From positions 38,374-102,373 of the forward strand of contig CAIUPP010000061.1 of NCBI GenBank assembly GCA_903901045.1: a DNA stretch of 64,000 nucleotides. The letters are read 5' to 3'. Below, in pieces: positions 5,066 through 56,217 of this stretch (position 1 is the first letter of the stretch; every line of letters starts with the position of its first letter). This stretch comes from an uncultured Planctomycetota bacterium (GTDB taxonomy: Bacteria; Planctomycetota; Brocadiia; CAIUPP01). The position numbers and the translations under genes are program-made. The notes under the pieces were generated by a model. It had not been told where the DNA came from. It did no database searches and was given only the letters and a program-made list of their open reading frames with translations.

Positions 5066-5210
5066 AATGACGAATGACGGAGGAAACAGCAAGTGCTGGA
5101 AACGTGTCGACCGATAGCTCGCCTGGTGGAGCGCGCTGTCCCAGCGCGCTGGGTTCCTGGAGCGACACGTTTTGCCTGGCACAAGCGCGCTCGGAGAGCG
5201 CGCTCCACCA

Positions 5211-6527
5211 TCACCGTTCCGCCCGGAATCGCTTCCCCCTGAGAATATGATGGTAGTGAACCGCGAACCGGTGCGCTTCATCCCGGACGTATTGGAGGAT
5301 CAGCAGCGCGGGGTTGTTGCGGCGCAGGCGCAGCTCGCGCGGCGGCTGGCCGAAGTAGAGCAGTTCCTCGCGCTTGGCCAGCGCCACGATGCACGCGGGC
5401 CGGATGCCCACCTCCGCCAGCGCGTCGGTCGCCGCCTGAAGCTGCCCCCTGCCTCCGTCGATCAGGAGGATGTCTGGCAGGGGGGCCTGCTCCTCGGCGA
5501 GGCGGCGGAAGCGCCGCGCGACCACCTCGCCGATCGAGGCGAAGTCGTTCAGCCCCTCCACCGTCTTGATCCGGAAACGGCGGTAGCCGGACTTGAAGGG
5601 GCGGCCATCCACGAACGTGACGAGGGAGGCGACCGAGTCGCTCCCGCCGAGGGTGGAGATATCCACCCCCTCGATGGCGCGCGGGAGCGCCGTCAATTCC
5701 AGCACGCGCTGCAACTCCGCGAGCCCCTTTGCGGCGTCCATCTCCGGCGGGAGGGTCGCCTCGGGAAAGAAGTCGAACGACCCGCGCTTGCCCAGCGCCT
5801 CGAAGGCTCTGATCTGGTCGCGCACCTGGCCGGCCTTTTCGAATTCCAGCCGCTTGGAGAGCTCCGCCATCCGGCTTTCCAGGTCGCGCAGCACGCGCTT
5901 GCGCTTGCCATCCAGGAAACGCTGAAGCAGTTCGATCTGCCTAAGGTACTCCTCGCGCGAAACGCGGTCGGCGCAGGGGGCCGTGCAGCGGCTGAGGTGA
6001 TAGAGCAGGCAGGGGCGCTCGAAGCGGCGCTTCACGTCGTCGGCGCGGATGGGGCGCGAGCAGGTGCAGAACTTGAAGACGCGCTGGAGCAGTTGCACCG
6101 CCTGGCGCAGGCCGCGCGCGTCGGTGAAGGGGCCGTAATACTTGCTCTTGCGGTTATCGCGCTGGCGGGTGACGAAGACGCGCGGAAAGTCGTCGCCGCG
6201 CGTGATCTCCAGGTAGGGGTAGAGCTTGCTATCGCGCAGGTCGGCGTTGTACTTGGGCTGGAGGTCCTTGATGAGGCGCGCCTCCATGAGCAGCGCGTCC
6301 ACCTCGGATTCGGCGGGGATCACCTCGAAGTCCGCCACCTGCGGCATCATGGCGGCGATCTGCGGGCGCTCGTCAGAACGCGCCTCCTGGAAGTAGCTGC
6401 CCACGCGGTCGCGCAGGGCGTTGGCCTTCCCCACGTAAAGCACCGCCCCGCGGGCGTTCTTCATGAGGTAAACGCCGGGAGTACGAGGCAAGGCGGCGGC
6501 TTTTTTTTTCAGGTCGTCAGGAGTCAT
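5211..6527 (-). CDS. uvrC: UvrC-like excinuclease (GIY-YIG + UvrC RNaseH-like domains), short form without C-terminal (HhH)2
   Basis: GIY-YIG motif GVYLMKNARGAVLYVGKANALRDRVGSYF plus UvrC central and endonuclease regions. ~438 aa versus ~600 aa for canonical UvrC. Confidence 0.75.
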   Translation of the reverse strand: MTPDDLKKKAAALPRTPGVYLMKNARGAVLYVGKANALRDRVGSYFQEARSDERPQIAAMMPQVADFEVIPAESEVDALLMEARLIKDLQPKYNADLRDSKLYPYLEITRGDDFPRVFVTRQRDNRKSKYYGPFTDARGLRQAVQLLQRVFKFCTCSRPIRADDVKRRFERPCLLYHLSRCTAPCADRVSREEYLRQIELLQRFLDGKRKRVLRDLESRMAELSKRLEFEKAGQVRDQIRAFEALGKRGSFDFFPEATLPPEMDAAKGLAELQRVLELTALPRAIEGVDISTLGGSDSVASLVTFVDGRPFKSGYRRFRIKTVEGLNDFASIGEVVARRFRRLAEEQAPLPDILLIDGGRGQLQAATDALAEVGIRPACIVALAKREELLYFGQPPRELRLRRNNPALLILQYVRDEAHRFAVHYHHILRGKRFRAER

Positions 6528-6540
6528 GGCTGTGAACGGA

Positions 6541-6680
6541 TTCAACTTTCAACATCCGACGTCCAACGTCCAACATTCAACGAACAACAAAAGAACGCCG
6601 CGCGCGGAACGTTGTTGTTTGTTGCCGTTACTTGAACGTTGAAAGTTGAACGTTGGATGTTGGACGTTGAATCCGTTGTC
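6541..6680. repeat. near-perfect ~65-bp-arm hairpin built from tandem heptamers (TTCAACG-type), 11-nt GC loop
   Basis: TTCAACTTTCAACATCCGACGTCCAACGTCCAACATTCAACGAACAACAA mirrors its reverse complement after the GCCGCGCGCGG loop. Confidence 0.75.
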
Positions 6681-7330: not shown

Positions 7331-8134
7331 CTACGGCGTTGCTTTCTCCGCCGGTTTCGCCTCAGATGGCTTCTGGCGCGTCTGCTGCTCCGGCGTGGCG
7401 GGGGGCAGGCGGCTGGCCGAGAGCATGCTGATCAGCGCTTCGGTTATGTCGCGCGGCGCCAGCGACTCCGGGAACTTCAGTTTGAAGTCGTTGGGGTCTA
7501 TGGCGATCCCGGAGCGAACGTCGGAGTAGGTCACTTTCAGAAATGTCGCGCCGTTCGGGTCGTCCAACTCGACGTGCCGCACCATGCCATCGGCCGGGCA
7601 GAGCCAGAAGCGCACCTTCGCCGGCTCGGGGAGCCAGAGCGCGACATTGGCCGGGAGCGAGAGCCGCCCCCGCGGCAGGTCCGCCTGGTAGCGCGTCACG
7701 GCGATGCCATCCAGCGTCCCTTCCCCCAGGCTGACGGCGCGCCCGTCGGTGAGCAGGCTGCGGTAAGCGCGGGGGTCGTAGGTGAGGACCGGGTCGTACC
7801 CCGGCATCGCCTTGTGCACGCGCTCCAGGTCCACCGTCACCGCGCGACGCCCGTCGGGCCCTTGCTCGATCTGCCGGACCATGAGCCCGTCGCTGGCGAT
7901 GGTCAATGTGCTTTGCTGCTCCTTGGGACTGCTGAGCGTCATCGTCCCTTCCACGCGGAACTGGCGGTCGCCGAGGAATTTGGCCTGGTAGTCCGTCGCG
8001 GCGTTCAGCTTGCCCACCGTCATTTCCTGGCGGATGCGCGCGGTGAAGCCGGTCGCATCCGCCGGCGCGGCGGAGGCCACGCACGCAAGCCCCATCATCA
8101 GCCCGGCGGCATAAAGGAACCCTCGCGGCCTCAT
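7331..8134 (-). CDS. secreted hypothetical protein (signal peptide; possibly LolA-like fold), last gene of tad-associated cluster
   Basis: N-terminal MRPRGFLYAAGLMMGLACVASAAPA signal peptide. No confident family assignment. Confidence 0.45.
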   Translation of the reverse strand: MRPRGFLYAAGLMMGLACVASAAPADATGFTARIRQEMTVGKLNAATDYQAKFLGDRQFRVEGTMTLSSPKEQQSTLTIASDGLMVRQIEQGPDGRRAVTVDLERVHKAMPGYDPVLTYDPRAYRSLLTDGRAVSLGEGTLDGIAVTRYQADLPRGRLSLPANVALWLPEPAKVRFWLCPADGMVRHVELDDPNGATFLKVTYSDVRSGIAIDPNDFKLKFPESLAPRDITEALISMLSASRLPPATPEQQTRQKPSEAKPAEKATP

Positions 8135-16727: not shown

Positions 16728-17233
16728 TGCATTTCCTCCTTGGGGCCCGCTGCGGCGGGACCCCGGTTGGGGACGGAGGCCTGGCGCATGAGGGTGACGG
16801 CTGAGCCGCCTCCTGCGCCCGCCTCGACGATGCTTATGATACACCAACTGCCGGTAGGGTCTGCAAATGTCAGGGGCATCCCGCCGGGCTCCTCCATCAT
16901 GCCCGGCAAGCGTTGCGTTGTCCAGCCCCGCGCGGGCATTTCATGCCTGTAGAACTCCGCGACCGCGTCGGCGGACTCGCGGCTGACGTAGCGAACCAAT
17001 ACGCGCCCCGAGCCCGGCGCGGAGTTCAGGATGCCGGCCAGTTGCGATTCCGGCGGCGCGGGGATGTTCTCCAGCGCCCGCCCCGCCCTGCCCGTTGCCC
17101 CGCGCTCCACAATTGCGGGCAATAATCCGTAATGGCCGATGGCGAAAGACAAGGCTACGATAAGCCCGGCGCCTGCAAGACGGAAAACGATTTCTGACTT
17201 CTGATTCCTGAATTCTGATTTCTGATTTGCCAT
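16724..17233 (-). CDS. hypothetical small membrane protein; N-terminus (MANQKSEFRNQKSEI) encoded by heptamer-repeat arm
   Basis: 169 aa with one TM helix. Overlaps cpaB start by 4 nt. The first 15 codons are the TTCTGAT tandem repeat. Confidence 0.4.
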   Translation of the reverse strand: MANQKSEFRNQKSEIVFRLAGAGLIVALSFAIGHYGLLPAIVERGATGRAGRALENIPAPPESQLAGILNSAPGSGRVLVRYVSRESADAVAEFYRHEMPARGWTTQRLPGMMEEPGGMPLTFADPTGSWCIISIVEAGAGGGSAVTLMRQASVPNRGPAAAGPKEEMQ

Positions 17234-17702
17234 GTTTCACATGCTACGTTGACAATTCGTCCTGTCTGAGTGAGTCCGCATTCTTCCGCGACTTGTACGT
17301 GGTGACCGCGGCGACGAAGATACGGATCAACTGGTCTGCCTCGTCGAGCATCCCGGTCAGACGCTTTGCGGGCAAGAGTCCGGCTTCGGCTATCAGCCGC
17401 AGCCAATACTCGCTCTCGCGCAATTCCTTCAAAGATATCTGCATCTTGTGAAGGAAATCCTGGCGGCTTTCCGCCCCTGACGCCTCACAGTAGTTTGCCC
17501 CGGCGGAGGTGGCGGCCCGCATGAGTTGAAGGCCGACATGCCGCCCCGTGGCCGACTTGGTCAGCGCATTTGCCACATGAATACTTCGGACTCCGAATTG
17601 CAGCAGCCTCCGGTTCAAGTCGTGCTTGTCCATGCTGTGCGCTCCCGATGAAACCTCACACTGCTCTCCGCCCGAGGCACAAATCAGAACTCAGAAATCG
17701 TT
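17186..17702. repeat. cassette B: four-helix-bundle gene bracketed by inverted heptamer-repeat arms (TTCTGAT units)
   Basis: Left arm CGATTTCTGACTTCTGATTCCTGAATTCTGATTTCTGATTTG. Right arm reverse complement is AACGATTTCTGAGTTCTGATTTGTG (shorter arm). Confidence 0.75.
17244..17633 (-). CDS. four-helix-bundle protein, 23S-IVS-protein family, copy B
   Basis: Family core ATSAGANYCEASGAESRQDFLHKMQISLKELRESEYWLRL. Confidence 0.8.
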   Translation of the reverse strand: MDKHDLNRRLLQFGVRSIHVANALTKSATGRHVGLQLMRAATSAGANYCEASGAESRQDFLHKMQISLKELRESEYWLRLIAEAGLLPAKRLTGMLDEADQLIRIFVAAVTTYKSRKNADSLRQDELST

Positions 17703-18721
17703 TACCACCGTTTCCAAAGATTCTGCGTCGCATCATTCACCGCGGGCAGCGCGACGGCGCCAAGCAGGTCGGCGGCCTCTCCCAGCACCGCGGCGGAGGT
17801 GTGCCCTTGCTCGCCGGCGGCCAGCCGCGTTCCATTCCCCGTGACGTGGCCGGTCAGGTCCATCGTGAACTCCCACTGCGGGCGGCTCGTGGGGTTGGGG
17901 TACGTGCCGGTGATGTAATTTCCCAGCGTGGTGGGCGCCTCGTCCGTTGCCCGGAAGACGGAGGGGAAGTAGGGGGGGCTGTACGTGGCGCGCAGGTCCG
18001 CGTGGCGACGTTCGAGCCAGTGCGTGCCGCCGACGCCGTCGAAGGCGGATGCGATCCAGGCGGTGGTGTTGTCGATGACCGGCGGAGTGGCCTCGTCGGC
18101 GGTTACGAACCCGCCGCCGAGCTCCACTCCACCAGCTAGAGGGTTCAAGTAATGTGCGGGGGAAAATTTGTCGCCATATTCCGTATTCGAGACTTCCGTG
18201 ATCCCCTTGACCGCGTCCCAGACGAAGCTCTGCGTGGTCACCCCCAGCGCGTAATTCCAGAGGCTGACGGCAAGCCGCTCGCGGTCGAACGTGTCCGGCT
18301 GGCCGCCCCCCATCAGGGGGCCGGTCGTCAATTGGGTGGGGATTTCCTGGCGGTAATAGTCGTCGAGCTGGCTTGAGAGCTCGGACGCCTCCAGCGTCAG
18401 GTCTCCCTGGGCGGCCGCCGTCTGGCCGCCGCTGACGGGGCGGACATTGTCCGGCGTCCCCCCGCCGGAGGGCCAGAGCTTCATCAGCAACAGGTCCGCC
18501 GGCTGAGCCGTGGGCATCCAGACGGCAAACGTCGCCGCCTTGACGGCGCGCTGCCGGGTCAGCGTCGCATAGCCGAAGTAAAGCACCCCCAGCACGATCA
18601 GCATGTACAGCGGCATGACCAGCGCGGTTTCGACCATCGCCGTTCCGCGGAGCGAACGACAACGGCGAGCGTAGAGTGTAGAGTGCAGAGTGATGAGTGT
18701 AGAGCTATTCATTTTTCTCAT
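17702..18721 (-). CDS. tadE: TadE/TadG-like pseudopilin with long repeat-encoded leader
   Basis: Contains RGTAMVETALVMPLYMLIVLGVL (class-III signal / TadE-like N-terminus). Leader residues STLITLHSTLY are encoded by the GTAGAGT repeat arm. Confidence 0.7.
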   Translation of the reverse strand: MRKMNSSTLITLHSTLYARRCRSLRGTAMVETALVMPLYMLIVLGVLYFGYATLTRQRAVKAATFAVWMPTAQPADLLLMKLWPSGGGTPDNVRPVSGGQTAAAQGDLTLEASELSSQLDDYYRQEIPTQLTTGPLMGGGQPDTFDRERLAVSLWNYALGVTTQSFVWDAVKGITEVSNTEYGDKFSPAHYLNPLAGGVELGGGFVTADEATPPVIDNTTAWIASAFDGVGGTHWLERRHADLRATYSPPYFPSVFRATDEAPTTLGNYITGTYPNPTSRPQWEFTMDLTGHVTGNGTRLAAGEQGHTSAAVLGEAADLLGAVALPAVNDATQNLWKRW

Positions 18722-19167
18722 GGGCCATGTTCCTCTTCACAGTTACGACAGATCGGACCGCCATGGCGGTTAACTCACTGCATTCCCGCAAGGCGCCGTC
18801 GAGTTGTGCCGGCGGCAACAAACGGCTCTCCCTGGCAAGAGTCAGCCAGTAGTCCGTTTCGCGCAGTTCTTTGATGACAACCTGCAGCTTATGCACGAAA
18901 TCCGCACGGCTCTCAGCGCCCTTTGCCTCCCTGTAATTTGCCCCAGCCGACGTGCCCGACCGTAGCACCTGCTTGGCAATCACTCTGCCAGCCATGGTCT
19001 TGGGCATAGCCTGCGTAAGGCGAATCACCTCGATAGCGTAGGCCAGCAGGCGCTTGTCCAGCATGCCCTCACGTTCTGCCATCGCCATAACTCCCCGCTC
19101 AGGTCCTTGTCCTCGTCCTTGTTCACTCTGCATTCATCGCTCTGCACTCTACACTCTACGCTCGCCG
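18665..19167. repeat. cassette C: four-helix-bundle gene bracketed by inverted heptamer-repeat arms (GTAGAGT units)
   Basis: Left arm GGCGAGCGTAGAGTGTAGAGTGCAGAGTGATGAGTGTAGAGC. Right arm reverse complement is GGCGAGCGTAGAGTGTAGAGTGCAGAGCGATGAATGCAGAGTGA. Confidence 0.8.
18705..19088 (-). CDS. four-helix-bundle protein, 23S-IVS-protein family, copy C
   Basis: Family core RSGTSAGANYREAKGAESRADFVHKLQVVIKELRETDYWLTL. The 3' end overlaps the tadE-like start by 17 nt. Confidence 0.8.
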   Translation of the reverse strand: MAMAEREGMLDKRLLAYAIEVIRLTQAMPKTMAGRVIAKQVLRSGTSAGANYREAKGAESRADFVHKLQVVIKELRETDYWLTLARESRLLPPAQLDGALRECSELTAMAVRSVVTVKRNMAHEKNE

Positions 19168-21738
19168 TTAATGTTCCACCACATCGCTCATCTGCCTATT
19201 CCCATAGTCGAGAACCGGCGTGATCGGCTTGCCGTACTCGTCGCGGCGCTGGCTCATCTGGCGCATCTTGAGGGCGATGCTGGGGTCTCCCTGCCCGTTG
19301 AATTGGGTGGCCCAGCCGCTTGAATCGTAGCCGGAGGCGAACTGCGCGCTGAGCACCGTATCCCACAGGTAGGAGAGGGCGTTTTCGGTTTCGAGCGTGA
19401 TCGCCTGCCCCTGAATGATCTCGTCATCCAGGTCGTAATCCTGCATCTGATCGCGCGAGGGATAGAGCTTTGCCGTCGCGCCCGCCATGTACAGATTGTT
19501 CGGGTCCTGCTCGACCCAGTTTGCTCGATCCGCCTTGCCGCCGAACTGGTACCGCGTTCCGCCGCCGTCGTCCGGAACGCCCACGCGCGAGCAGGAGATG
19601 GCGACGTACCCCCAGGGCGGCTGTAGCGCCTGCGGGAAGAGCATGGGGAGGTCGGGTTGCTTGTAGACTCCGACATTGACGCCATACTTGAAGAACTCAT
19701 CCGTCAGCACCAAGGGGTATCCGGCCGGTGCCGCGGGGGCGTTGCGGAGAATGTAGGAATCGTACCGGTGAACGCGGCTGTCCAGAAAGTCGGTGTCCGT
19801 CCATCCACGCTGACCGTCGGTGATGGACAGATCATAGGAGCGCGGGTCCGGCGGGTTGATGCGACCGGAGGGGATATCCGCGATGAAGACCCGGATATCC
19901 GTGGCCCCGTCGCGGTTGTTATCGTAACCGCCGCAGACTTTACATACTTCCTTGTGCGTCCCCTGGTTGGGATCATTGGGATCGTTGGGGACATCCACAA
20001 CGCCGCTCCCGCCGCAGCCCAAGGGAGGCTCCGGGCAGGGCTCCGTCTGGTAGTAGGCGTCCTCCGGAGGGTCCTCATTGGGCTGGAGGATCGCCAGGCT
20101 GCCGGGCGGACGCAGCGGATAGGTGTGCCGCCAGAACGGCTCGCGGGGACCCGCCGTGCCCGTATTGTCCGGGATCGGATTGAACCAGGCCGTCCACGCC
20201 GGCAGTTGGTTCCCGGAGATGCCGCGGTCGCCGAAGGCATGGGTGTAGACGTACCGATTCATATTCCTTTCGCGGGACAGCATCGCCCCGGAGGTCTCGT
20301 GATCGTATTGCCATTGCTTGAGTCCACCGTGCTCCGGGACCACTTCGGTAAGCTGCTGGCGCGACCAGACCTGCTCGGTCGGGTCGAACCACTTGCGCCA
20401 GCGGCCGTCCGCGTCACCGGCGGTGAGGCTGAACCCGCCCGCCGTGACGCTGAAGGAGTTCGGGTCGAAGCCGTGGACGCCGATCGTGACCGGGCCCAGA
20501 GTGGTCGAGATGGTCGGGGGGTCGCTCAAGGTCAAATGGGCGTGGCCGATGGTGACCTGGGTGGGGTCCCCGATGGTCGCGCTGGCGTCGCCGGGGAAGT
20601 GGATAACGTTGGTGACGTTCATCCGCACTTCCACCCCGGCGATCGTGGTCGTGTTGCTGGTCATGTCGGTGTAGGAGTGCGCGGCGTTGTCCCAGAGGTA
20701 CAGGTGGCCGTTGCCCGCGTTCTTGAAAGTCTGGGAAAGGTTGCCGCAGGTGACTTTCGTCCCCTCCTTGGTCCCGTCGCCGTCCATGTCCACTTTCTCG
20801 AAGGAGATAGTCGGCAGGGAGGGGCCGCCGTTCGCGGCCTGTCCCCAGACCACCCAGCCGAGGTCGTCGGTCTTGACCAGGTAAATCTCCTCGGTCAGCG
20901 CCCCGTTGGTGTAGAAGCTGATCTTCCAGCGGTTGGGGGATTCCTGGCTGATGATCACCTCGGTTTCGGTGACCCCTTCCAGGGAGTACAGGATGTGCCA
21001 CTGCCCGTCCACCAGCGTCACCTGGATCATCTCCTTGCTGCCGCCGGTGAGGTTGGTGACGCGCCAGCCGTTGCCCAGTTGCTCGATGCTGAAAGAGATG
21101 AGACTCTCCGGGTAAGGGAAGAGCCGCTGGCTGGGGAAGACGCTGAGGCGCTCTCCGCCGGCGCGCGTGCCGATGGCGAACATCTCCTCGGCGAGCAGGC
21201 GCGGGGTGAGGATGGCGACGGCGTTCTCCGTCTGCGAGAGCTGCACCATCAGGCTCTTGGCCTGCGGCAGGGCGGTGTTGGCGAGGTCCCATGCCTGCCG
21301 GTGCGCCATGACGGCCGGGCCGGAGGCAACGCCGCCGGTGCGGATCAGTTCCATGCGCGCGGCGACGCCGGTGACGTTCACATCCACGGCATACTTCAGC
21401 GAGTTGTAGTACGTCTGCGCCATGGCGCTGTTGATCCAGCCGATGGCGCTCAGGCTGTTCGCTTCCACCATCGCGCCGGAGTACGCCGCCGAGTCCGCCG
21501 CCACCTGCACCCGCGTGCGCCCCTCGATGATCCGCCCCAGGTTGTACACCAGCGCCACGAACCCCACCAGCACGATCAGGCTCGCCGCGGCGAAGATAAT
21601 CCCCTGGCCGCGCTCGTCGCGCAGGAAACGGCGAAAACTGAGAACTGAGAACTGGGAACTGAAAGTTGCGAAAGAACGGCCCCTCCGCGCCATAGCGCGG
21701 TGGACCGGAATCGGCTCGTTATTCTTGCATGCACTCAT
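19168..21738 (-). CDS. tadG: large TadG-like pilus-assembly/pseudopilin protein (856 aa)
   Basis: N-terminal RRFLRDERGQGIIFAAASLIVLVGFVALVYNLG (TadG N-terminal domain type). The leader contains repeat-encoded FSSQFSVLSF. Confidence 0.65.
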   Translation of the reverse strand: MSACKNNEPIPVHRAMARRGRSFATFSSQFSVLSFRRFLRDERGQGIIFAAASLIVLVGFVALVYNLGRIIEGRTRVQVAADSAAYSGAMVEANSLSAIGWINSAMAQTYYNSLKYAVDVNVTGVAARMELIRTGGVASGPAVMAHRQAWDLANTALPQAKSLMVQLSQTENAVAILTPRLLAEEMFAIGTRAGGERLSVFPSQRLFPYPESLISFSIEQLGNGWRVTNLTGGSKEMIQVTLVDGQWHILYSLEGVTETEVIISQESPNRWKISFYTNGALTEEIYLVKTDDLGWVVWGQAANGGPSLPTISFEKVDMDGDGTKEGTKVTCGNLSQTFKNAGNGHLYLWDNAAHSYTDMTSNTTTIAGVEVRMNVTNVIHFPGDASATIGDPTQVTIGHAHLTLSDPPTISTTLGPVTIGVHGFDPNSFSVTAGGFSLTAGDADGRWRKWFDPTEQVWSRQQLTEVVPEHGGLKQWQYDHETSGAMLSRERNMNRYVYTHAFGDRGISGNQLPAWTAWFNPIPDNTGTAGPREPFWRHTYPLRPPGSLAILQPNEDPPEDAYYQTEPCPEPPLGCGGSGVVDVPNDPNDPNQGTHKEVCKVCGGYDNNRDGATDIRVFIADIPSGRINPPDPRSYDLSITDGQRGWTDTDFLDSRVHRYDSYILRNAPAAPAGYPLVLTDEFFKYGVNVGVYKQPDLPMLFPQALQPPWGYVAISCSRVGVPDDGGGTRYQFGGKADRANWVEQDPNNLYMAGATAKLYPSRDQMQDYDLDDEIIQGQAITLETENALSYLWDTVLSAQFASGYDSSGWATQFNGQGDPSIALKMRQMSQRRDEYGKPITPVLDYGNRQMSDVVEH

Positions 21739-21815
21739 GGTATTGTTACCTCAATCTCAACATCGCGCCATCTTTCAGTTCTCAGTCTTCAGTCTTCAGT
21801 CTTCAATTCTCGCCG
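21630..21815. repeat. 'empty' heptamer inverted-repeat pair (GAGAACT units) whose ~105-bp loop holds only the tadE-stop/tadG-start junction
   Basis: Left arm GGCGAAAACTGAGAACTGAGAACTGGGAACTGAAAG. Right arm reverse complement is GGCGAGAATTGAAGACTGAAGACTGAAGACTGAGAACTGAAA. Confidence 0.7.
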
Positions 21816-21822
21816 TCCTTCA

Positions 21823-22407
21823 TCACTCGCCCCACGGATGCGCCAGCACGCAACTGCCGGTCATCAGCCAGTGCGCCGCGCCTCCCCACTTCGAGCGGTC
21901 CACGTCGAGGCCGGGGGTCAGGTCGCCCAGCGCGTAGAGGGCGTCGCCGGCGATTGGCACATTCAATTCGTAGTCATGCGATACGTCGGCGTGGATCACC
22001 GGCTGGCCGTTGACCGAATCGGGGTAGACGTTGACGTCGGTCTTCAGTTCCGCCGCGGCGCTGCCGGGGAGCGTCCCCCAGCCGGGCAGGGTGATGGTGT
22101 CGTTGGCGACGACGCCGGAAGTTCCCGTGATGCGGCTCAGCGGGATCAGCGCCGCGCGCTTGCAGGCGGTCGGGTCGATCGCCGGCGACTGCGCCAGCCC
22201 CGCGCGCGCCGCGCAAAAAGCGCTGTACTCGATCACCTGCTGCGCGATGAACAGATGGGCCAGTTGAATGATGACCAGCGTGATCAGCAGTTGGAGCGGG
22301 AAGATGATGGCGTATTCAACCAGCGCCTGCCCCGACTCCGCGCGGGCGGCGCGGCGAGAACTGAAAACTGAGAACTGAAAACTGAGAACTGAGAGTTGGC
22401 GGTTCAT
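21823..22407 (-). CDS. tadE: TadE-like pseudopilin
   Basis: RRAARAESGQALVEYAIIFPLQLLITLVIIQ is a TadE N-terminus. Leader MNRQLSVLSFQFSVFSS is encoded by the repeat arm. Confidence 0.75.
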   Translation of the reverse strand: MNRQLSVLSFQFSVFSSRRAARAESGQALVEYAIIFPLQLLITLVIIQLAHLFIAQQVIEYSAFCAARAGLAQSPAIDPTACKRAALIPLSRITGTSGVVANDTITLPGWGTLPGSAAAELKTDVNVYPDSVNGQPVIHADVSHDYELNVPIAGDALYALGDLTPGLDVDRSKWGGAAHWLMTGSCVLAHPWGE

Positions 22408-22824
22408 CGCGCAGCTCCTTTGTTCGACTTCGCCGTCACCACGGACTTCACGCCTATGGAGATCAGTTCATTCACCTCACTGGCAATGCCGTCCAGGCGA
22501 GCCGGCTTCAACAAATGGGCGTTGCGGCAAAGCTCAATCCAATAGAGCGTCTCGCGCAGTTCTTTCACTACAATCTGCATCTTGTGCGCAAAGTCGGCGC
22601 GACTCTCGGCGCATCTCGCCTCGCAGTAGTTGGCGCCAGGCGACGTGCCGGATCGCAGCAATTGCAGTCCCACATGCCGCCCCGCCGCCGTCTTGGGCAG
22701 CGCGTTCGTCATCGCGATGACCCTCACGGCCAGTTCTTGCAGGCGCTCACCATAATTGCCGCTCTGCGCCACGTTTTATCCTCTCAGTTCTCAGTCTTCA
22801 GTTCTCAGTTTTCAGTTCTCGCCG
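22353..22824. repeat. cassette D: four-helix-bundle gene bracketed by inverted heptamer-repeat arms (GAGAACT units)
   Basis: Left arm GGCGAGAACTGAAAACTGAGAACTGAAAACTGAGAACTGAGAG. Right arm reverse complement is GGCGAGAACTGAAAACTGAGAACTGAAGACTGAGAACTGA. Confidence 0.8.
22404..22772 (-). CDS. four-helix-bundle protein, 23S-IVS-protein family, copy D
   Basis: Family core RSGTSPGANYCEARCAESRADFAHKMQIVVKELRETLYWIEL. GTG start. Confidence 0.8.
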   Translation of the reverse strand: MAQSGNYGERLQELAVRVIAMTNALPKTAAGRHVGLQLLRSGTSPGANYCEARCAESRADFAHKMQIVVKELRETLYWIELCRNAHLLKPARLDGIASEVNELISIGVKSVVTAKSNKGAAR

Positions 22825-22825
22825 T

Positions 22826-23374
22826 TTACTTCAGCAGCAACTCCATCCACGCCCACACAACCCCGATCCCGATGGCCACGCCGTACGGGATCGTCGTCGC
22901 CGGCGCGCCGTCGGCCGGCTTGGCGCGAAGAGTGAAGAGGGCGCGCAGGCTGGATTTGAGGCCGGACAGGAGCCGTCGCTGCCAGATCAGCACGCAGACG
23001 GCAATGGCCGCGCCCACGAGGGCGGCATACATCAGCGCGATGATCACGAAGCCGATGGCGCTGACGCCCGCCGCGCCCGCGAAGGGGGCCAGCGCGCCGA
23101 CGGCCCCCATCATCTTGACGTCTCCCGCGCCCAGGCTGCCCATGAAATAGACCACCAGCAAAATGCCCGCCCCCACCCCCGCCGCCAGCGCCGCGTTGCC
23201 GAGGTGCCAGAAGCCCGGCTGGTTCGTGTCCATCAGGTACGCGCTGGCCAGCCCGATCGCTAGCGCCCCCAGCGTCACCCAGTTATAAAGCTTCCCGCGC
23301 GCCATGTCGGTGTAGACGCACACGACCGCCAGCGCGAGAAGACAACCCTGCCGAACCAGTTCTATGGTTGCCAC
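22826..23374 (-). CDS. tadV: prepilin peptidase (A24 family; CpaA/TadV)
   Basis: 182 aa polytopic protein with the conserved GAGDVKMMGAVG motif. Confidence 0.85.
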   Translation of the reverse strand: MATIELVRQGCLLALAVVCVYTDMARGKLYNWVTLGALAIGLASAYLMDTNQPGFWHLGNAALAAGVGAGILLVVYFMGSLGAGDVKMMGAVGALAPFAGAAGVSAIGFVIIALMYAALVGAAIAVCVLIWQRRLLSGLKSSLRALFTLRAKPADGAPATTIPYGVAIGIGVVWAWMELLLK

Positions 23375-23406
23375 AGATCAACCCACCTCAATGTTCCTGC
23401 GATAAT

Positions 23407-23456
23407 GTGGCGCGGGTTATCCAACCCGCGGTCATCGTGCGTTCATTCCGCTTTCG
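23407..23456. repeat. family-4 element copy a (GCGGGTTATCCAACCCGC hairpin + CATCGTGCGTTCATTCCG tail)
   Basis: GTGGCGCGGGTTATCCAACCCGCGGTCATCGTGCGTTCATTCCGCTTTCG. Confidence 0.7.
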
Positions 23457-23603
23457 TCTCTCGCGGGCCTGCGGCCCGCGCCATATCGGCTTCAAGACCG
23501 GAAGCCCCGCGCGCTCCACTTCAAACGAATAACTCCGACCGCTGCGGGCGCAGAGGCCGGAGTTATCCATGCGACAACGCCCGATCGGGCAGCGGACGCG
23601 CCG

Positions 23604-24327: not shown

Positions 24328-24437
24328 TGCGCCAGCACCCCCACGATGGCGCGCGCTTTCCCGCAAAAGCGCGGCGCCCTTCGCTGCCCCGATACAGCGA
24401 GCGGCCAGTCCGCGTCCCGCGCCGCAGGCGCGGGGAA

Positions 24438-24545
24438 AAGAAAGCGGAAAGAACGCACGCTGATTGCGGGTTTGATAACCCGCGCTACATCGGCCTCACG
24501 AACCGGAAGAACTGCACGGTAATCGCGGGTTGGATAACCCTCGCC
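24438..24545. repeat. family-4 element copies c and d (reverse orientation), tandem, upstream of flp genes
   Basis: Reverse complement of 24438-24490 is GTAGCGCGGGTTATCAAACCCGCAATCAGCGTGCGTTCTTTCCGCTTTC. 24500-24545 is a more diverged copy. Confidence 0.7.
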
Positions 24546-24558
24546 ACACCGCCTGCTT

Positions 24559-25113
24559 TCAGCGGCCACACTCCACCTGGCTCCGGTAGAGGGAGCTGCC
24601 GGCAGCATCAATCGCGACGATGGCGGGGAACTCCTGAACCGTCATCTCCCTAAGCGCCTCGGGGCCCAGGTCTTCGTACGCGATCACCCGGGACGCCGTG
24701 ATGCACTTCGCCAGAAGCGCGCCCGCCCCTCCAGTGGCGGCGAAGTACACCGCGCCGTGGCGCTTCATCCCCTCGATGACGGCCGGGGAGCGATCCCCCT
24801 TGCCGATCATCCCGCGCAGCCCCAGGGCGATCAGCCGCGGGGCGTAGGCGTCCATGCGATAACTCGTGGTCGGACCCGCCGCGCCGACCACCTGCCCCGG
24901 CGCGCCGGGCGTGGGGCCGACGTAATAGATGATCGCGCCGCGCAAGTCGACCGGCAGCGGCTCGCCGCGGTCGAGCGCGGCGACCAGCCGCTTGTGCGCG
25001 GCATCGCGCGCAGCGTAGAGGATTCCGCTGATCCGCACCGGCGTCCCCGCCGTCAATCGGCGCGCCGCCTCCTCGCTGAGCGGGGGGGTGATCCTGACGG
25101 GAGCGCTATCCAT
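24559..25113 (-). CDS. class-I fumarate hydratase / L(+)-tartrate dehydratase beta subunit
   Basis: 184 aa matching the FumA C-terminal / TtdB catalytic domain (GPTTSYRMD..., KGDRS...). Confidence 0.8.
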   Translation of the reverse strand: MDSAPVRITPPLSEEAARRLTAGTPVRISGILYAARDAAHKRLVAALDRGEPLPVDLRGAIIYYVGPTPGAPGQVVGAAGPTTSYRMDAYAPRLIALGLRGMIGKGDRSPAVIEGMKRHGAVYFAATGGAGALLAKCITASRVIAYEDLGPEALREMTVQEFPAIVAIDAAGSSLYRSQVECGR

Positions 25114-25274
25114 ACTTCTCCTCTTCCCTGCTGCGCCGATCTATTCACCGCGGAGGCGCGGAGAACGAACGACGCCGTCTTTCATCTCTCAGTTCTCAGT
25201 CTTCAGTTCTCAGTTCTCGCCGTCCTGCGCATCTCCGGGGTGAAAAGGGCAAACGCCCGTCTCGGAGAGAACGT

Positions 25275-25324
25275 GTAGCGCGGGTTATCAAACCCGCGAT
25301 CATTGTGCGTTCTTTCCGATTTCC
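25275..25324. repeat. family-4 element copy b, in the 268-bp spacer between fumarate hydratase alpha and beta genes
   Basis: GTAGCGCGGGTTATCAAACCCGCGATCATTGTGCGTTCTTTCCGATTTCC, preceded at 25185-25225 by a solo CTCAGTT heptamer-repeat arm. Confidence 0.7.
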
Positions 25325-25381
25325 TTTCCCCGCGCCTGTGGCGCGGGACGCGGACTTGATAGTCCGCGCTACATACGCGGC

Positions 25382-26295: not shown

Positions 26296-26380
26296 GAAAC
26301 GAAAGGACCTAAAGGACTGCAAGGACAAAAAGGACCATGGATGTGTCCTTGCAGTCCTTGCAGTCCTTTAGGCCCTTCTT
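26296..26380. repeat. heptamer-periodic hairpin (AAGGAC units) between convergent genes
   Basis: GGACCTAAAGGACTGCAAGGACAAAAAGGACC / loop ATGGAT / GTGTCCTTGCAGTCCTTGCAGTCCTTTAGGCC. Confidence 0.65.
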
Positions 26381-34929: not shown

Positions 34930-35535
34930 ATGCGCCCGGAGGATCATCTGTTCATGGCGCGCACTCATCTGCGGGAGATTTCCCCCGCCGCGCCGCCGCC
35001 GGATTGCCTCCTGCGGACTTATCGCCCCGGCGACGAAATCCCATGGCTCGCCCTCGTCCGCGCCGTCTACGGCGGGAAGTGGGGGGAGGATACCTTCGAG
35101 CGCTGCGTGCGCGCCGATGAGGCCTTCCGCCCCGAACGGCTTTTCCTGGCCGAGTCGGCCGGCCGTCTCGTGGGGACTGCCGGCGCTTTCCAGAAGCTGG
35201 CCTACGGCGATCAGACCGGCTACGTGCACATGCTCGCGGTGGAGGCGGAGAGCCAGGGGAAGGGGATCGGCTCGGCGCTGCTCGCGCGATGTCTGGAGTA
35301 CTTCCGAGACATGGGCTGGCGCAACGCCGTGCTGGATACCGACCGCCATCGCCTCCCCGCCATCCGCCTCTACCTGCGCAGCGGCTTCCTCCCCCTCCCC
35401 GAAACGCTCGACGAGCTGGAGGAATGGCGTCGCATTCTCCCGGCGCTGGGATACGCCGGAATGGCCGAACGGCTCAGGCAGGGGGTGGTGGCAGAAGGAT
35501 CGCGCGGGGCGAACGACGGCAAGTCCGCGGTATGA
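34930..35535 (+). CDS. GNAT family N-acetyltransferase
   Basis: Acetyl-CoA binding motif MLAVEAESQGKGIGSALL. 201 aa. Confidence 0.8.
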   Translation: MRPEDHLFMARTHLREISPAAPPPDCLLRTYRPGDEIPWLALVRAVYGGKWGEDTFERCVRADEAFRPERLFLAESAGRLVGTAGAFQKLAYGDQTGYVHMLAVEAESQGKGIGSALLARCLEYFRDMGWRNAVLDTDRHRLPAIRLYLRSGFLPLPETLDELEEWRRILPALGYAGMAERLRQGVVAEGSRGANDGKSAV

Positions 35536-35595
35536 GACGGACCACGGCGATTGCTGAACACGGATTATGCTCTGTAGAAAGAAACCCTTCTGTGA

Positions 35596-35775
35596 ACCCC
35601 CGCAGGGGGTGACGGACTTTAGCCCACGGCGAGCGAAGCGAGTCGTGGGGAACCGATCTGTTCTTGGTGTCAAGAGCCCCCGAAGGGGGCGACGGACTTG
35701 TGGCGGAACGTTCCGTCGCCCCCTCCGGGGGCTCACGGGTCGTGCATGACTCCTCCCCACGACTCGCTTCGCTCG
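35596..35775. repeat. ~180-bp structured element with nested inverted repeats (MITE- or ncRNA-like)
   Basis: Outer arms AGCCCACGGCGAGCGAAGCGAGTCGTGGGG (35621) and CCCCACGACTCGCTTCGCTCGCCGTGGGCT (35746). Inner arms CCCCCGAAGGGGGCGACGG and CCGTCGCCCCCTCCGGGGG. Confidence 0.6.
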
Positions 35776-35935
35776 CCGTGGGCTAGAGTCCGACGGCCGC
35801 TTCGCGGCCTAACAAGCAGAATGGGATGGTTTCTCCGGAGCATGCGGATTACGCGGTGCGCCCTGCGCACCTGTGAATTACGATTAGCAGGTTGGCCGAC
35901 CCCTCCAATGCAGCTCGTACCGCGGCGTCGTTCAC

Positions 35936-36846
35936 TTCGCAAATCGCCATTCGCAATTCGCTATTCGCCAATCATCCGTTCCGCAATTCATCCGCTAACC
36001 GCGGCAAGAAATATCCCCGCGCTGACGGCGACGTTCAGCGACTCCCCGGCCCCGCGGCTGGGGATCGTGTACCGCGCATCGGCCAGCGCCTGCAACTCCG
36101 GGGCGATCCCGTGCGCCTCGCTGCCCAGCAGCAGCGCCGCGCGGCTCGAACGCGCCCAGGCGCTCCACTCCGTCGCGCCGTCCATCGTCCCCGCGCCCAG
36201 CGCAAACCCCTGCCCCTTCAGCCGCGCCAGCGCCTCGGCCAGCGGCACGTCGCGGCAGACCGGCAGATGGAACATCCCGCCCATCGTCGCGCGCACCGTC
36301 TTGGGGTTGAGCAGGTCGGCGCTGCCGCGCCCCAGCAGCACGGCATCCACCCCGAACCACGCCGCCGTGCGGATCACCGTGCCCACATTCCCCGGGTCGC
36401 TCACGCTGTCCAGCGCCAGCGCCACCGCGCGCGGCCCGAACTTCAGGTCCGCCCAGCGCCGCTCCTGCCAGCGCGCCGCCGCCAGCAATCCCTGGCTGTG
36501 CACGGTGTCGCTGATTTTGTCGAACTCGAATTCGGCCGTCTCCAGGATGGGAATTTTCCGCTCCTCGAACTCCGCCGCCACGCGCCGCGCCGCGGAGTCC
36601 GCGAATTCGGAGAGCAGCAAAAACTCCACCGGCGCGCCGGAGTCCAGAAGCTCCTCGCACAGCCGCGCCCCCTCCACGGCGAAGAGTCCGCTCTCCTCGC
36701 GTCCCTTGCGGCTCCCCAGCCCGCGCGCCACCGCCAGTTGTCTCTTGGATGCTTTCATGCCCCTGAATATGACAGACGCGGCGCGGGACGTCAAGAACGA
36801 ATGATTTGCGAATTGCGATTACCGATTAGCGATTGGCGATTGGGAC
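35936..36846. repeat. heptamer inverted-repeat pair (AATCGCN/ATTCGCN units) bracketing the TrmH/SpoU methyltransferase gene
   Basis: Left arm AAATCGCCATTCGCAATTCGCTATTCGCCAATCATCCG. Right arm ATGATTTGCGAATTGCGATTACCGATTAGCGATTGGCGATTGGGACGG. Confidence 0.6.
35988..36758 (-). CDS. TrmH/SpoU-family RNA 2'-O-methyltransferase (RlmB-like)
   Basis: SpoU motifs (LDSVSDPGNVGTVIRTAAWFG, TIPSRGAGESLNVAVSAGIFL). ATG at ~36758. Confidence 0.85.
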   Translation of the reverse strand: MKASKRQLAVARGLGSRKGREESGLFAVEGARLCEELLDSGAPVEFLLLSEFADSAARRVAAEFEERKIPILETAEFEFDKISDTVHSQGLLAAARWQERRWADLKFGPRAVALALDSVSDPGNVGTVIRTAAWFGVDAVLLGRGSADLLNPKTVRATMGGMFHLPVCRDVPLAEALARLKGQGFALGAGTMDGATEWSAWARSSRAALLLGSEAHGIAPELQALADARYTIPSRGAGESLNVAVSAGIFLAAVSG

Positions 36847-37036
36847 GGCGCTGGCCCGTCGGGGAGGCACCACGAGGGCGCTTGGCTGCGACAACGGTTC
36901 CGTCCCCTGTTTCCTTCATCCTTCGTCATGGGGGCTTCGTGATTTTCCGCCCCTCCCTCCCTTGACAGGCGATATTTATATGATATCATTCTGAAAGCGC
37001 AGGGCGGGTGATCTCTCAGGGGAAAGGAATCGTCAA

Positions 37037-37936
37037 ATGGAAGAGCGCGAAACGACGGCGACGAGTGGTTGGCTGATGCTGCCGGTGATGAGCTGCCTGA
37101 TTCTGGGGGTGCCGCTGCTGATCGGCGCGGCGGTGGAATTCAAGTCGGCGTGGCTCTTGTTGGCCATCGTGGCGCTGGGGCTCTTCGATCTGCTCATGCT
37201 CGCCGGGTTCTTCATCCTGCAGCCGGGGGAGGCGCGCGTCCTGGTCCTGTTCGGGAAATATGTCGGCTCCGTCAAGACCAGCGGCTTCTTCTGGGCGAAC
37301 CCATTCAGCGTGCAGCACGGCGTCATGAGCTCCATGGACCTGAGCATTTCCGTCCGCGCGCGGAACTTCGAGACTTCGGCGCTCAAGGTGAACGACCAGC
37401 GGGGCAACCCGATCGAGATCGGCGCGGTGGTGGTCTGGCGCGTCCAAGATACCGCGAAGGCGCTTTTCGACATCGAGTCGTACCAGCAGTACGTCAAAAT
37501 CCAGAGCGAGACGGCCGTCCGCCACCTCGCGCAGAGCTACCCGTACGATCACATGGATAACGCGGCGCAGACGCAGGTCACCCTGCGCGGGAACAGCGAC
37601 GAGATCAGCCACGCCCTGGAGGGGGAACTGCGCGAGCGGCTTTCCCGCGCGGGGGTGCTGGTCGAGGAGGCGCGGCTGACGCACCTGGCGTACAGCCCGG
37701 AGATCGCCGGGGTGATGCTGCGCCGCCAGCAGGCGGAGGCCATCGTCGCCGCGCGGCAGAAGATCGTCCAGGGCGCGGTGAGCATGGTCGAGATGGCGCT
37801 GACGGAGCTCTCCACGCGCAAGGTGATCGAGCTGGACGAGGAGCGCAAAGCGGCGATGGTCGGCAACCTGCTGGTCGTCCTGTGCGGCATGACCGAGGCG
37901 GAGCCGGTGATCAACGCGGGGACGCTATACCATTAA
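37037..37936 (+). CDS. SPFH/band-7 domain membrane protein
   Basis: N-terminal TM region plus band-7 domain (stomatin/prohibitin-like). Confidence 0.8.
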
Positions 37937-54381: not shown

Positions 54382-55941
54382 TCAAGTGAAATTTAACATG
54401 TTTTTTGCGCCCACTGCCGCCAGCAGCGCGAGCGCTTTTTGCGCCGTTTCGTCGAACTCCGCCTCCGGCCGGCTGTCGGCGACGATGCCGCCCCCGGCCT
54501 GCAGCCAGACCTTGCCTTCGACGGTCAGGATCGTGCGGATGGCGACGCTCATCTCCAGCGCGCCGTCGAACCCCAGGAAGCCGACCGCGCCGGTGTACAC
54601 GGAGCGGGCGGTCGGCTCCAGCTCGTCGATGATCTGCATCGCCCGGACTTTGGGCGCGCCGGTGATGGAGCCGCAGGGGAAGGTCGCGCGCAGCAGATCC
54701 ACCCGGTCGCGGTCGCCGTGGAGTTCCCCCGAGACGGTGGCGACCAGATGATGAACCGTGGGATAGCTCTCCAGGCGCCGCGCCTCCTCCACCCGCACCG
54801 AGCCGTAGGAGCAGACGCGCCCGAGGTCGTTGCGTTCCAGGTCCACGATCATCGCCAGTTCGGCGTTGTCCTTTTCGCTGAGCAGAAGCTCCTGCGCGAG
54901 CGCGCGGTCCTCCTGCGCCGAGACGCCGCGCGGGCGCGTTCCCTTGATCGGCCGCGTCTCCACGCGCCCCCCGCGCAACGAGAGAAACCGCTCCGGCGAG
55001 GCGCTGACCACGGCACGCCCTCCCCCCAAGTCCAGATACGCCGCCATCGGCGCAGGGTTGATCCGGCGCAGCCGCAGATAGAGTTCCCACGGGGGCAGCG
55101 CGCAGGCCGCCTCGAATCGGCGCGAGAGGTTCACTTGGAAAATATCGCCCGCCGCGACGTACTCGATGCACCGCGCCACCGCCCGGAGATATTCCGCGCG
55201 CGAGAAGTTGCAGCGCAACTCCCCCGCAATGCCGGACGAGGCGAATAGCGAATTGCGAATAATGGGGTCGGGCTGCTTTTCGCCGTGGCGAAAAGATGCC
55301 TGACCCCATTTCGTCTTCGCCCAGGCGGATTCCGCCGTGGGGGCAAGGCATGCCCCGCCCCTGCCCGCGACGCCAGGAGCCGTCGCCGGCAGAACGCCGG
55401 TCAGCCGCTCCGCCAGTTCCCCCGCCGCCCGCGCCGCGTTGCGCCCGCCCGCCGCGCACCCCACCGCCCACGCCCGCTGCTCCTGCAGGTCGTACACAAT
55501 GGCGGCATCGTGGAACGCCAGGTGCGATTCCGGCAGGGGGATATCCGCGAGGGCGCGCCTCGGCAATTGCTCGATGAAATGGCAGAGGTCGTACCCCAGG
55601 TATCCCACCGCGCCGCCGAGAAACGGCGTCTCCGGGTGCGGAGGAAAAGTGCGCTCGTTCAGCAGCCGGCGCATTTCGCGGAAGGGATCCTCTTCCACGC
55701 GGCGCTCACCCGCCGCAGCGCGCAGAAGAAGGCTCCGGCCGGCGGACTGCATCACGCGATACGGGCGGCAGCCCAGGAGGCTGTATCGCGCCAGTCCGGG
55801 CATCGGCAGCGCGCTGTCCAGAAAGAACGCCCCCTCCTCGCGCGCCAGAAGGCGGAACGCCTCCTCGGGAGCGGGAGGATGGGGCAGCGGAACGACGCAA
55901 ACCGGCGCAGGCATGACGCACCCCTCAAGAAGAACCGGCAA
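54382..55941 (-). CDS. aminodeoxychorismate/anthranilate synthase component I (PabB/TrpE family) with in-frame repeat insertion
   Basis: Chorismate-binding domain motifs (SPERFL, IKGTRPRG, TFPCGSITGAPK). A ~45-aa insert (...GRGGACLAPTAESAWAKTKWGQASFRHGEKQPDPII...) is encoded by family-1 and family-2 palindromes. Confidence 0.85.
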   Translation of the reverse strand: MPVLLEGCVMPAPVCVVPLPHPPAPEEAFRLLAREEGAFFLDSALPMPGLARYSLLGCRPYRVMQSAGRSLLLRAAAGERRVEEDPFREMRRLLNERTFPPHPETPFLGGAVGYLGYDLCHFIEQLPRRALADIPLPESHLAFHDAAIVYDLQEQRAWAVGCAAGGRNAARAAGELAERLTGVLPATAPGVAGRGGACLAPTAESAWAKTKWGQASFRHGEKQPDPIIRNSLFASSGIAGELRCNFSRAEYLRAVARCIEYVAAGDIFQVNLSRRFEAACALPPWELYLRLRRINPAPMAAYLDLGGGRAVVSASPERFLSLRGGRVETRPIKGTRPRGVSAQEDRALAQELLLSEKDNAELAMIVDLERNDLGRVCSYGSVRVEEARRLESYPTVHHLVATVSGELHGDRDRVDLLRATFPCGSITGAPKVRAMQIIDELEPTARSVYTGAVGFLGFDGALEMSVAIRTILTVEGKVWLQAGGGIVADSRPEAEFDETAQKALALLAAVGAKNMLNFT

Positions 55942-56217
55942 ATGGTAGCGGATGTGCGCCTCCGCCGCAAGGAAGGCGGAGCGGGTTCTTTGCCCGGCCC
56001 GCTCGTTGTTTCCGGATCAAGCGCGCTGGGACAGCGCGCTCCACCATGCCACCGTCGCGTCCGATCTGCGGACTCGCACGTAGGCACGGGCTTTAGCCCG
56101 TGCGCCTGTGGGCGGGCGAGGGCCCGCCCCTACGCGCCAATGCGCCCCCCCCCCGCATGCTTGCATCCTCCGCCGCGCGGCGGTATCGTGTCGGCGGTTC
56201 AACAGAGCGAGGGCTCC

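Follow-up and report, generated by a model that had tools for sequence, protein, structure and literature searches.

A TrmH-family methyltransferase gene between complementary heptamer arrays is probably a bystander of two decayed repeat elements

In the 64,000-nt stretch of DNA analyzed here (the window; ~67% GC), a gene for a SpoU/TrmH-family RNA 2′-O-methyltransferase (TrmH; 35988-36758, minus strand) is flanked by two mutually complementary arrays of ATTCGCN-type heptamers. The reading favored here, to which we give a probability of roughly 0.6, is that the gene is not the cargo of an element but a bystander between two decayed half-elements of a single heptamer family. TrmH would be an ordinary, self-promoted, and probably leaderless gene. 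Downstream of it, 8 nt past the stop codon, where canonical elements normally begin, would lie the left-type half of an element whose right half survives as 2-3 degenerate units; upstream of the TrmH promoter would lie a right-type half, with its left half gone. Since both halves would come from the same family, they would be mutually complementary and look like a bracket. The arms would then be relics that today do little or nothing for TrmH, save perhaps for a contribution of the 3′ array to a 3′-end hairpin.

The gene itself (ATG at 36758, TGA at 35988-35990) encodes 256 aa (MKASKRQL...). A profile search finds SpoU_methylase and SpoU/MRM3 substrate-binding domains (PF00588, 1.2e-34; PF22435, 3e-15; PF08032, 1.1e-09), that is, a catalytic domain and an N-terminal L30e-like substrate-binding domain, as in RlmB, the 2′-O-methyltransferase of Gm2251 in 23S rRNA. 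Against the RlmB equivalog model TIGR00186 the protein scores 107.1 bits, under the NCBI curated cut-off of 160.15, so that its RNA target is not established and assignment as RlmB is not supported; its best solved-structure relatives are generic TrmH-family or rRNA methylases. A search of the protein against genome contigs returned distant homologs only (at most 42% identity) and no close genome. TrmH is oriented opposite to both of its neighbors: a GNAT acetyltransferase gene (34930-35535, plus strand) converges on its 3′ end, and a Band_7/SPFH gene (37037-37936, plus strand) diverges from its 5′ end. The nearest minus-strand gene upstream is 3.6 kb off, beyond three plus-strand genes. Neither flank holds a four-helix-bundle (4HB) remnant, according to a maximum-sensitivity HMM search (best E-value 1.4), and a BLAST search of the TrmH-GNAT spacer against plasmids gave zero matches. 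At the Rfam gathering threshold the window yields one tRNA only, elsewhere in the window; in E-value mode, the region 35450-37100 has sub-threshold matches to long-hairpin miRNA models, on a palindrome at 35613-35792.

The arm on the 3′ side of TrmH (35925-35981) consists of about five ATTCGCN heptamers plus matching non-repetitive ends. On the minus strand, the sense of TrmH, it has the form of a canonical left-type arm, with GAACGGATGATTGGCGAA ahead of the heptamers, and it is this base motif that begins 8 nt past the TGA. The arm on the 5′ side (36795-36851), with about five ATTCGCN/AATCGCN heptamers, occupies the spacer between the predicted divergent promoters of TrmH and Band_7; read in the same sense, it corresponds to a right-type arm of the canonical build, ...AATCGCAATTCGCAAATCATTCGTTC, and stops 0-2 nt ahead of the -35 hexamer described below. 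Both arrays are AT-richer than their surroundings; the 5′ array is ~47-49% GC and not A-tract-like. A preliminary description of this DNA had placed the gene between two such arms, and did so correctly, although the arms extend slightly farther than was given there; it had also called them less perfectly matched than the arms of the 4HB cassettes, and they are (75% complementary, against 88-98% for cassettes B, D, and F).

The complementarity is far above chance. A repeat finder pairs the arms without gaps over 57 nt each, with 813 nt between them and 43 of 57 positions complementary: 10/11 at the inner (gene-proximal) end, 26/35 in the five-unit core, and 7/11 at the outer (distal) end. The RNA duplex predicted for the two arms has an energy of -65.7 kcal/mol on the plus strand and -64.1 on the minus strand, while dinucleotide shuffles give -41 ± 4.6 (z about -5). 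When flank complementarity was scored for 45 genes of the window, TrmH reached 45, while the 39 genes without a heptamer array on both flanks reached at most 27; the four 4HB cassettes scored 40-83, and a TadE gene between two elements 65. Identity between the TrmH arms is 0.75 in register, vs. 0.44-0.58 after a shift of 7, 14, or 21 nt. Two unrelated arrays sharing one consensus would be expected to show complementarity independent of register, and that candidate was dropped; the register dependence, together with the matching unique ends, identifies the arms as homologous inverted copies along their whole length. Chance juxtaposition of unrelated simple repeats might be suggested by the frequency of heptamer arrays in this genome (13-14 in 64 kb). 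However, both arrays belong to the same rare unit family, which the window contains at a single further site (55241-55261), and they are inverted with respect to each other and share unique ends; duplex z, register test, and flank scores effectively refute this explanation, which we regard as barely credible. The best partner of each arm within 3 kb is the opposite TrmH arm. As mutual best partners with matching unique ends, the two could once have been true partners, an observation that fits less easily with independent half-elements.

On the favored reading, the far halves of the two elements are missing or decayed. A degenerate segment of 2-3 units (GTGAATTACGATTAGCAGG, 35868-35890) is complementary to the 3′-side arm, and is possibly the remnant of its local partner; a fold of the arm with this segment shows a modest gain over shuffles (z -2.9). 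No partner remnant of the 5′-side arm is found beyond 36851, and an upstream half-element without trace of its missing partner is a point against reading the arms as relics.

Heptamer-armed elements are abundant in this genome. A short-period scan of the window found 13-14 arrays with a lag of 7, as against zero for lags of 3-6, 8, 10, 11, or 13; period 7 is the only short period enriched. Altogether there are seven inverted pairs of arrays and one orphan arm. Four pairs (B, C, D, and F, at 11.8, 17.2, 18.7, and 22.3 kb) have a PF05635/TIGR02436 4HB gene inside, and in cassettes B, D, and F the arms lie 0-10 nt from its start and stop codons; two (A, 6538-6677; E, 21624-21816) are short empty hairpins; and the seventh (35925-36851) has the SpoU/TrmH gene inside. 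The orphan is a left-type arm (25176-25222) ahead of a fumarase beta gene. The heptamer unit varies from pair to pair (CAACGTC, TGATGAG, GATTTCT, GAGTGTA, AACTGAG, ATTCGCN).

The same architecture extends beyond the window. Eighty metagenome loci (35-66% GC) were recovered with a 4HB alignment, 65 of them with enough flank for the test; in 49 of these 65 the sequences on either side of the 4HB gene form an inverted-repeat alignment (score at least 30) with a best period of 7. Metagenome loci and window together (499 kb) contain 205 period-7 arrays, as against 0-17 for each of periods 5, 6, and 8-11. Loop lengths fall into three classes: 3-150 nt (empty), ~340-620 nt (nearly always with a 4HB ORF inside), and more than 800 nt, the last being mostly pairings of arms from adjacent elements. 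Compared for compensatory changes, cassette F and a relative (L019) differ in the number of units (4 vs. 5), and A/G variants are not mirrored. Outside rRNA genes, in the intervals between protein-coding genes, intervening sequence (IVS)-like PF05635 cassettes whose arms are polar and made of heptamers are widespread; a literature search for PF05635, heptamer, and inverted repeat returned only papers on the Coxiella IVS (PMC4990558) and on TAACTGA repeats (PMC4679880), and within it such a cassette was described for the Coxiella IVS alone. This wider association is a more valuable by-product of the analysis than the TrmH bracket.

There is precedent in the window for a gene that merely stands between elements: the TadE gene (21823-22347) has the intact hairpin E on one side and cassette F on the other, and over 50 nt its two flanks reach 86% complementarity. 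Pairs in everted order, as well as orphan arms, are also seen, both in the window (25176-25222) and in four metagenome loci (L046, L073, L044, and L090), with orphan arms specifically in L046 and L073.

The TrmH pair resembles the cassettes in having two inverted complementary arms of period-7 units, but its loop is a SpoU methylase gene instead of a PF05635/TIGR02436 ORF, and its polarity is not the canonical one. In the canonical build, an AACG[GA] stem base is followed by purine-rich heptamers, the loop (short and empty, or a PF05635 gene), the complementary heptamers, and CGTT. All six of the other window elements, and four more in L090, have AACG[GA]... at the outer left end and ...CGTT at the outer right end, with the heptamers inward. 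As a rule, the stop codon of the gene before it marks the start of the left arm, whose inner end often includes the ribosome-binding site of the cargo. In 34 of 39 4HB cassettes the upstream arm is purine-rich in the gene sense (mean 0.64); at TrmH the purine fraction is 0.43 in the upstream and 0.65 in the downstream arm. The gene-proximal ends are ...AATCATCCGTTC to the left of the gene (plus strand) and GAACGAATGATTTGCGA... to its right, and the pair is reversed relative to the canonical build at all four ends, with the heptamers running outward from the gene. The 15-mer ACGGATGATTTGCGA (up to 2 mismatches) is confined, in 610 kb, to the inner ends of both TrmH arms and the outer stem bases of two cassette arms in L090. 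In the TrmH sense, the order is right-type arm, promoter, TrmH, left-type arm; this is the order expected of a gene between two elements rather than within one. Ten elements, in two related loci, and the purine-skew statistic are the basis of the polarity rule. As a universal rule the AACG/CGTT end motif was rejected: it holds in the window and L090 but not in distant loci, and is applied here only locally.

The position of the predicted promoter points the same way. A consensus scan of 35500-37100 (1.6 kb) finds two promoter-like sites, vs. 0.2 expected from shuffles, each just 5′ of one of the divergent genes: a sigma70-like predicted promoter of TrmH (36794-36766, minus strand; TTGACG, a 17-nt spacer, and a TG-extended CATATT), and a predicted Band_7 promoter (36962-36989, plus strand; TTGACA-16-TATCAT). 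The TrmH -10 hexamer ends 7 nt ahead of the ATG, from which a leaderless TrmH mRNA is predicted. The 5′-side arm ends 39 nt 5′ of the ATG, with the predicted -35 and -10 in between, and spans about -37 to -90 of this promoter. It is thus probably outside the TrmH transcript, as far as a promoter model can tell, and the arms would not meet in one RNA; on this prediction the 5′ arm, unlike the arms of a cassette, would neither abut the ORF nor be transcribed with it. An ortholog with 86% protein identity (L007) keeps the two hexamers and their spacing of 17 nt, with a spacer of different sequence. The promoter that self-expression of TrmH calls for is a consensus match, and as such a prediction.

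These observations bear on the most direct interpretation of the arms, a long-range RNA bracket: both arrays would be transcribed with TrmH and form a stem of ~50 bp around the whole mRNA, which RNase III would cut or which would protect the ends, much as when an IVS is excised or an rRNA precursor is processed. The arm complementarity (z about -5) is what such a stem requires, and in a fold of 35900-36870 both the minimum-energy and the centroid structures pair the two arms, given that both are in one RNA; this fold would also count against regarding the arms as unconnected relics. RNase III is known to cut a heptamer-containing stem in the Coxiella IVS (PMC4990558). However, a conserved predicted promoter separates the 5′ arm from the gene, no same-strand gene lies within 3.6 kb upstream, and the polarity is the reverse of that in all canonical elements. 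The mismatches are also mainly of the wrong kind: 10 of the 14 in the TrmH pair are non-wobble and 4 are transitions that would give G·U on one strand or on the opposite one, while in the other six pairs of the window 11 of 32 are non-wobble and 21 are wobble-type transitions. Small as these numbers are, the pattern fits a TrmH pair that is no longer held complementary. Over all seven pairs, G·U and A·C counts are 12 and 13, with no strand bias, and this test thus shows no RNA-level selection even for the canonical cassettes.

Comparison with other genomes further weakens the case for a bracket. Five contigs of the same species (L010-L014) are identical at both arrays, with no empty site. One close ortholog was available for comparison (L007/L008, the 86% identity noted above), in the same GyrB-LarN-x-TrmH-GNAT-HEAT synteny but with a different divergent neighbor gene. 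There the 3′ array is kept, with five units in a different order of variants and without the AACGGATGATT segment, and the 5′ arm is down to ~20 nt (GCAATTCAGTCACTCGTTC) adjoining the conserved promoter. Relative to L007, the window has 16 extra nt (GCGGAACGGATGATTG) in the 3′-side arm, exactly those that raise complementarity with the inner end of the 5′-side arm. This window-specific segment would favor the RNA bracket over decayed half-elements, since pairing could have been selected for or promoted by gene conversion. No period-7 array was found in L009 (77% identity, different synteny) or in eight further homologs (29-61% identity), where flank complementarity is 13-19, vs. 45 at TrmH. The array pair is thus present in 0 of 10 homologous loci examined in other taxa, namely the 86% ortholog and nine other homologs. 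To judge from the sequences compared, only one species has the bracket; it does not come with the TrmH gene as such. With this evidence on both sides, we consider a long-range RNA bracket decidedly unlikely.

A related idea would rescue pairing without the predicted start: a longer precursor, or an unrecognized upstream start, would bring both arrays of the everted pair into one RNA, where they would pair and RNase III would set the level of an rRNA/tRNA 2′-O-methyltransferase. If this were true, heptamer arms would be a portable module able to enclose any gene, in either polarity. We regard it as very doubtful. L090 contains the syntenic tad pilus operon, with GATTTCT arrays, and in it a TadE-like gene is in a canonical-polarity bracket (4967-5030/6417-6469), which hints at such portability.

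As a further possibility, the two arrays could be separately useful DNA or RNA elements, alike by common descent and not by mutual pairing. The 5′ array could act at the DNA level, as an UP-like element or as the site of a repeat-binding regulator common to the Band_7 promoter, and the 3′ array could be part of a terminator or stabilizer hairpin in the 3′ UTR. The location of the 5′ array, at roughly -37 to -90 relative to the promoter prediction, would suit the first role. The second agrees with the 3′ array directly after the stop codon, conserved in L007 and there followed by a GC-rich hairpin; two other orthologs (L015 and L016) likewise have a hairpin right after the stop codon, with arms built from different tandem units of 9-10 nt, which suggests that 3′-end hairpins of this general style may be common in the group. 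In Beggiatoaceae, a role as regulator sites has been suggested for direct heptamer repeats close to gene starts (PMC4679880). On the other hand, L007 has lost the 5′ array yet retains the promoter, the base composition is not that of an A-tract, the local 3′ hairpin is weak (z -2.9), and no binding protein was identified. This alternative seems rather unlikely.

Finally, the inside-out order could be that of a circularly permuted or mobile cassette, with right-type arm, promoter, TrmH, and left-type arm as its linear integrated form and the arms as recombination ends. Joining the outer ends of the arms would in fact give a canonical AACGG...CCGTT hairpin resembling element A. However, the conserved synteny with L007 means that TrmH is not a recent insertion; no recombinase gene adjoins it, according to the ORF list and a domain search; no target-site duplication or other direct repeat around the pair is visible on inspection of the flanks; and the five identical same-species contigs include no empty site. 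We therefore hold this explanation to be highly improbable. A MITE or other TIR transposon was rejected as well: arm sequences differ between elements, there is no flanking direct repeat, the five identical contigs show no insertion polymorphism, and the locus is syntenic in L007.

The two decayed half-elements thus remain the best reading of the bracket, which as a by-product of two decayed repeats would have little importance for TrmH itself. The preliminary description had concluded from it that the bracket architecture is not specific to 4HB passengers. This stands insofar as complementary arrays do flank a non-4HB gene, but polarity, promoter, and orthologs leave unsupported the further idea that this is the same architecture with another passenger. 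It had also remarked that both kinds of cargo are rRNA-related, which turns out to be nominal. PF05635 owes its name to its discovery within an intervening sequence of 23S rRNA, and to our knowledge it has no known rRNA function; TrmH scores below the RlmB cut-off; and the other ordinary genes flanked by heptamer arms in these data are TadE-like pilus genes. The rRNA link between the 4HB and TrmH genes is a coincidence of names, and the TrmH bracket should not be counted as evidence for the capture of housekeeping or rRNA-related genes. A more general caution applies: in genomes dense with hairpins of the same family, any gene between two of them looks bracketed, and it is polarity and promoter position that separate cargo from bystander.

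Among known systems, the IVSs of 23S rRNA (Coxiella burnetii, Leptospira; PMC4990558) are close in build to the 4HB cassettes. The Coxiella IVS has an S23p (PF05635) ORF and terminal inverted repeats that form a stem cut by RNase III, the only one of these stems for which cleavage has been shown experimentally, and tandem GACAGAT heptamers, strain-variable in copy number, just 5′ of the ATG; no evidence was found that the IVS protein is made (PMC4990558). The window elements share the long terminal-inverted-repeat stem, the 5′-arm heptamers before the ORF, and the 4HB ORF in the loop, and the Coxiella GACAGAT unit is purine-rich, the same polarity as in 34 of 39 cassettes (PMC4990558). Unlike the IVSs, the window elements lie between protein-coding genes and not in rRNA. 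The TrmH pair departs further: it has no PF05635 ORF, is inside-out, and has a 5′ arm that is probably outside the transcript, so that RNase III excision would have no substrate there.

The RNase III stems that bracket 16S and 23S rRNA also enclose a gene-sized RNA between distant complementary segments, and are the analogy behind the earlier bracket idea; they differ in being co-transcribed and conserved, which on present evidence the TrmH arms are not.

TAACTGA-type heptamer direct repeats, reported from Beggiatoaceae, Cyanobacteria, and Bacteroidetes as arrays that are direct in all but one inverted case and have no PF05635 link (PMC4679880), are likewise short tandem heptamer arrays found only between genes, often stopping just a few nt short of a start codon, and the GAACTGA/AAACTGA arrays of the window are nearly identical to them in unit. 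The TrmH arrays, in contrast, have another unit, form an inverted pair, and do not abut a start codon: the 5′ array is upstream of the -35 hexamer, and the 3′ array follows the stop codon, with no same-strand gene downstream.

REP and BIME sequences offer another parallel. They too are multi-copy intergenic hairpin-formers, frequent in long operons (here the tad pilus operon, in the window and in L090), and their copies can by chance flank a gene on both sides. While REP copies have one conserved sequence, the heptamer elements conserve only the 7-nt period and the complementarity of the arms, and vary in unit. The TrmH bracket is best seen as one more configuration of a known kind of dispersed hairpin repeat.

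Inverted period-7 arrays are found on both sides of four-helix-bundle (4HB; PF05635/TIGR02436) genes at 49 of the 65 testable loci among 80 metagenome loci (L019-L098), and likewise in the window's own cassettes (heptamer-armed hairpins carrying a 4HB gene) at 11.8, 17.2, 18.7, and 22.3 kb. The host genomes are very diverse, with GC contents of 35-66%. In 499 kb, period 7 accounts for 205 arrays and each of the other tested periods for 0-17. Of 39 4HB cassettes, 34 have a purine-rich upstream arm; period, complementarity, and polarity are the sole constants of the arms, while the sequence of the heptamer unit is free to vary. The same build has been reported for the 23S rRNA intervening sequence (IVS) of Coxiella (PMC4990558); beyond this case, no general account of 4HB genes with inverted period-7 arms was found in the literature.

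Tandem-repeat-armed hairpins in this group are not strictly heptameric, since arms of tandem 9-10 nt units also occur: AAAGGACNN in the window (26303-26335 / 26345-26377), and CACGGATNN(N) just 3′ of the TrmH genes at two homologous loci, L015 and L016.

Heptamer hairpins or 4HB cassettes occupy nearly all intergenic gaps of a tad/Flp pilus operon (genes TadE, TadG-like, RcpC, and CpaF), both in the window (17187-22830) and at the related locus L090 (2046-8430). At the latter, a TadE-like gene (5122-6345) is bracketed in canonical polarity, with the stem-base motif outermost (arms 4967-5030 / 6417-6469); the left arm of a 4HB cassette (7924-7973) is a near-duplicate of the left arm of this bracket, and the near-duplication takes in the ribosome-binding site GAAGGAGG.

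Heptamers of the TrmH pair also appear within a coding sequence. The 21-mer ATTCGCAATTCGCTATTCGCC at 55241-55261, an exact copy of a segment of the TrmH 3′-side arm (35949-35969), lies in frame, as three heptamers making seven codons, in a minus-strand anthranilate/aminodeoxychorismate synthase gene (54382-56016), at the linker joining the Anth_synt_I_N and Chorismate_bind domains. Beside it (55342-55359) is a variant, with 2 mismatches, of the 18-nt perfect palindrome GGCAAGGCATGCCTTGCC, which has five exact copies in the window (24308, 28091, 34870, 38208, and 40406; 0.03 expected), the majority just past gene ends. This palindrome probably represents a REP-like element or a bidirectional terminator.

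The spacer separating the GNAT and TrmH stop codons is largely occupied by a near-palindrome of ~184 nt (35591-35814, core 35613-35792), with 61-nt arms, 84% complementary, and a 102-nt loop. It is single-copy in all sequence compared, and is missing at L007, where the TrmH ortholog is 86% identical and the corresponding spacer measures just 72 nt.

The fumarase beta-subunit gene (24559-25113) is bracketed by an 83-nt non-heptamer inverted repeat (24407-24489 / 25274-25356; 93% complementary, arms 784 nt apart), with a third copy at 23405-23460 and a related one at L019 (717-798). This is a second dispersed-repeat family, and a housekeeping gene can seem to be bracketed by it too.

Within the fumarase bracket is a left-type heptamer arm (oriented like the left arm of a canonical element) at 25176-25222, an orphan with no local partner. 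Other orphan arms are at L046 (3284-3318 and 5164-5201) and L073 (3676-3714). Some of these arms are left-type and immediately 5′ of ordinary genes, a placement like that of the TAACTGA 5′-UTR repeats of Beggiatoaceae (PMC4679880).
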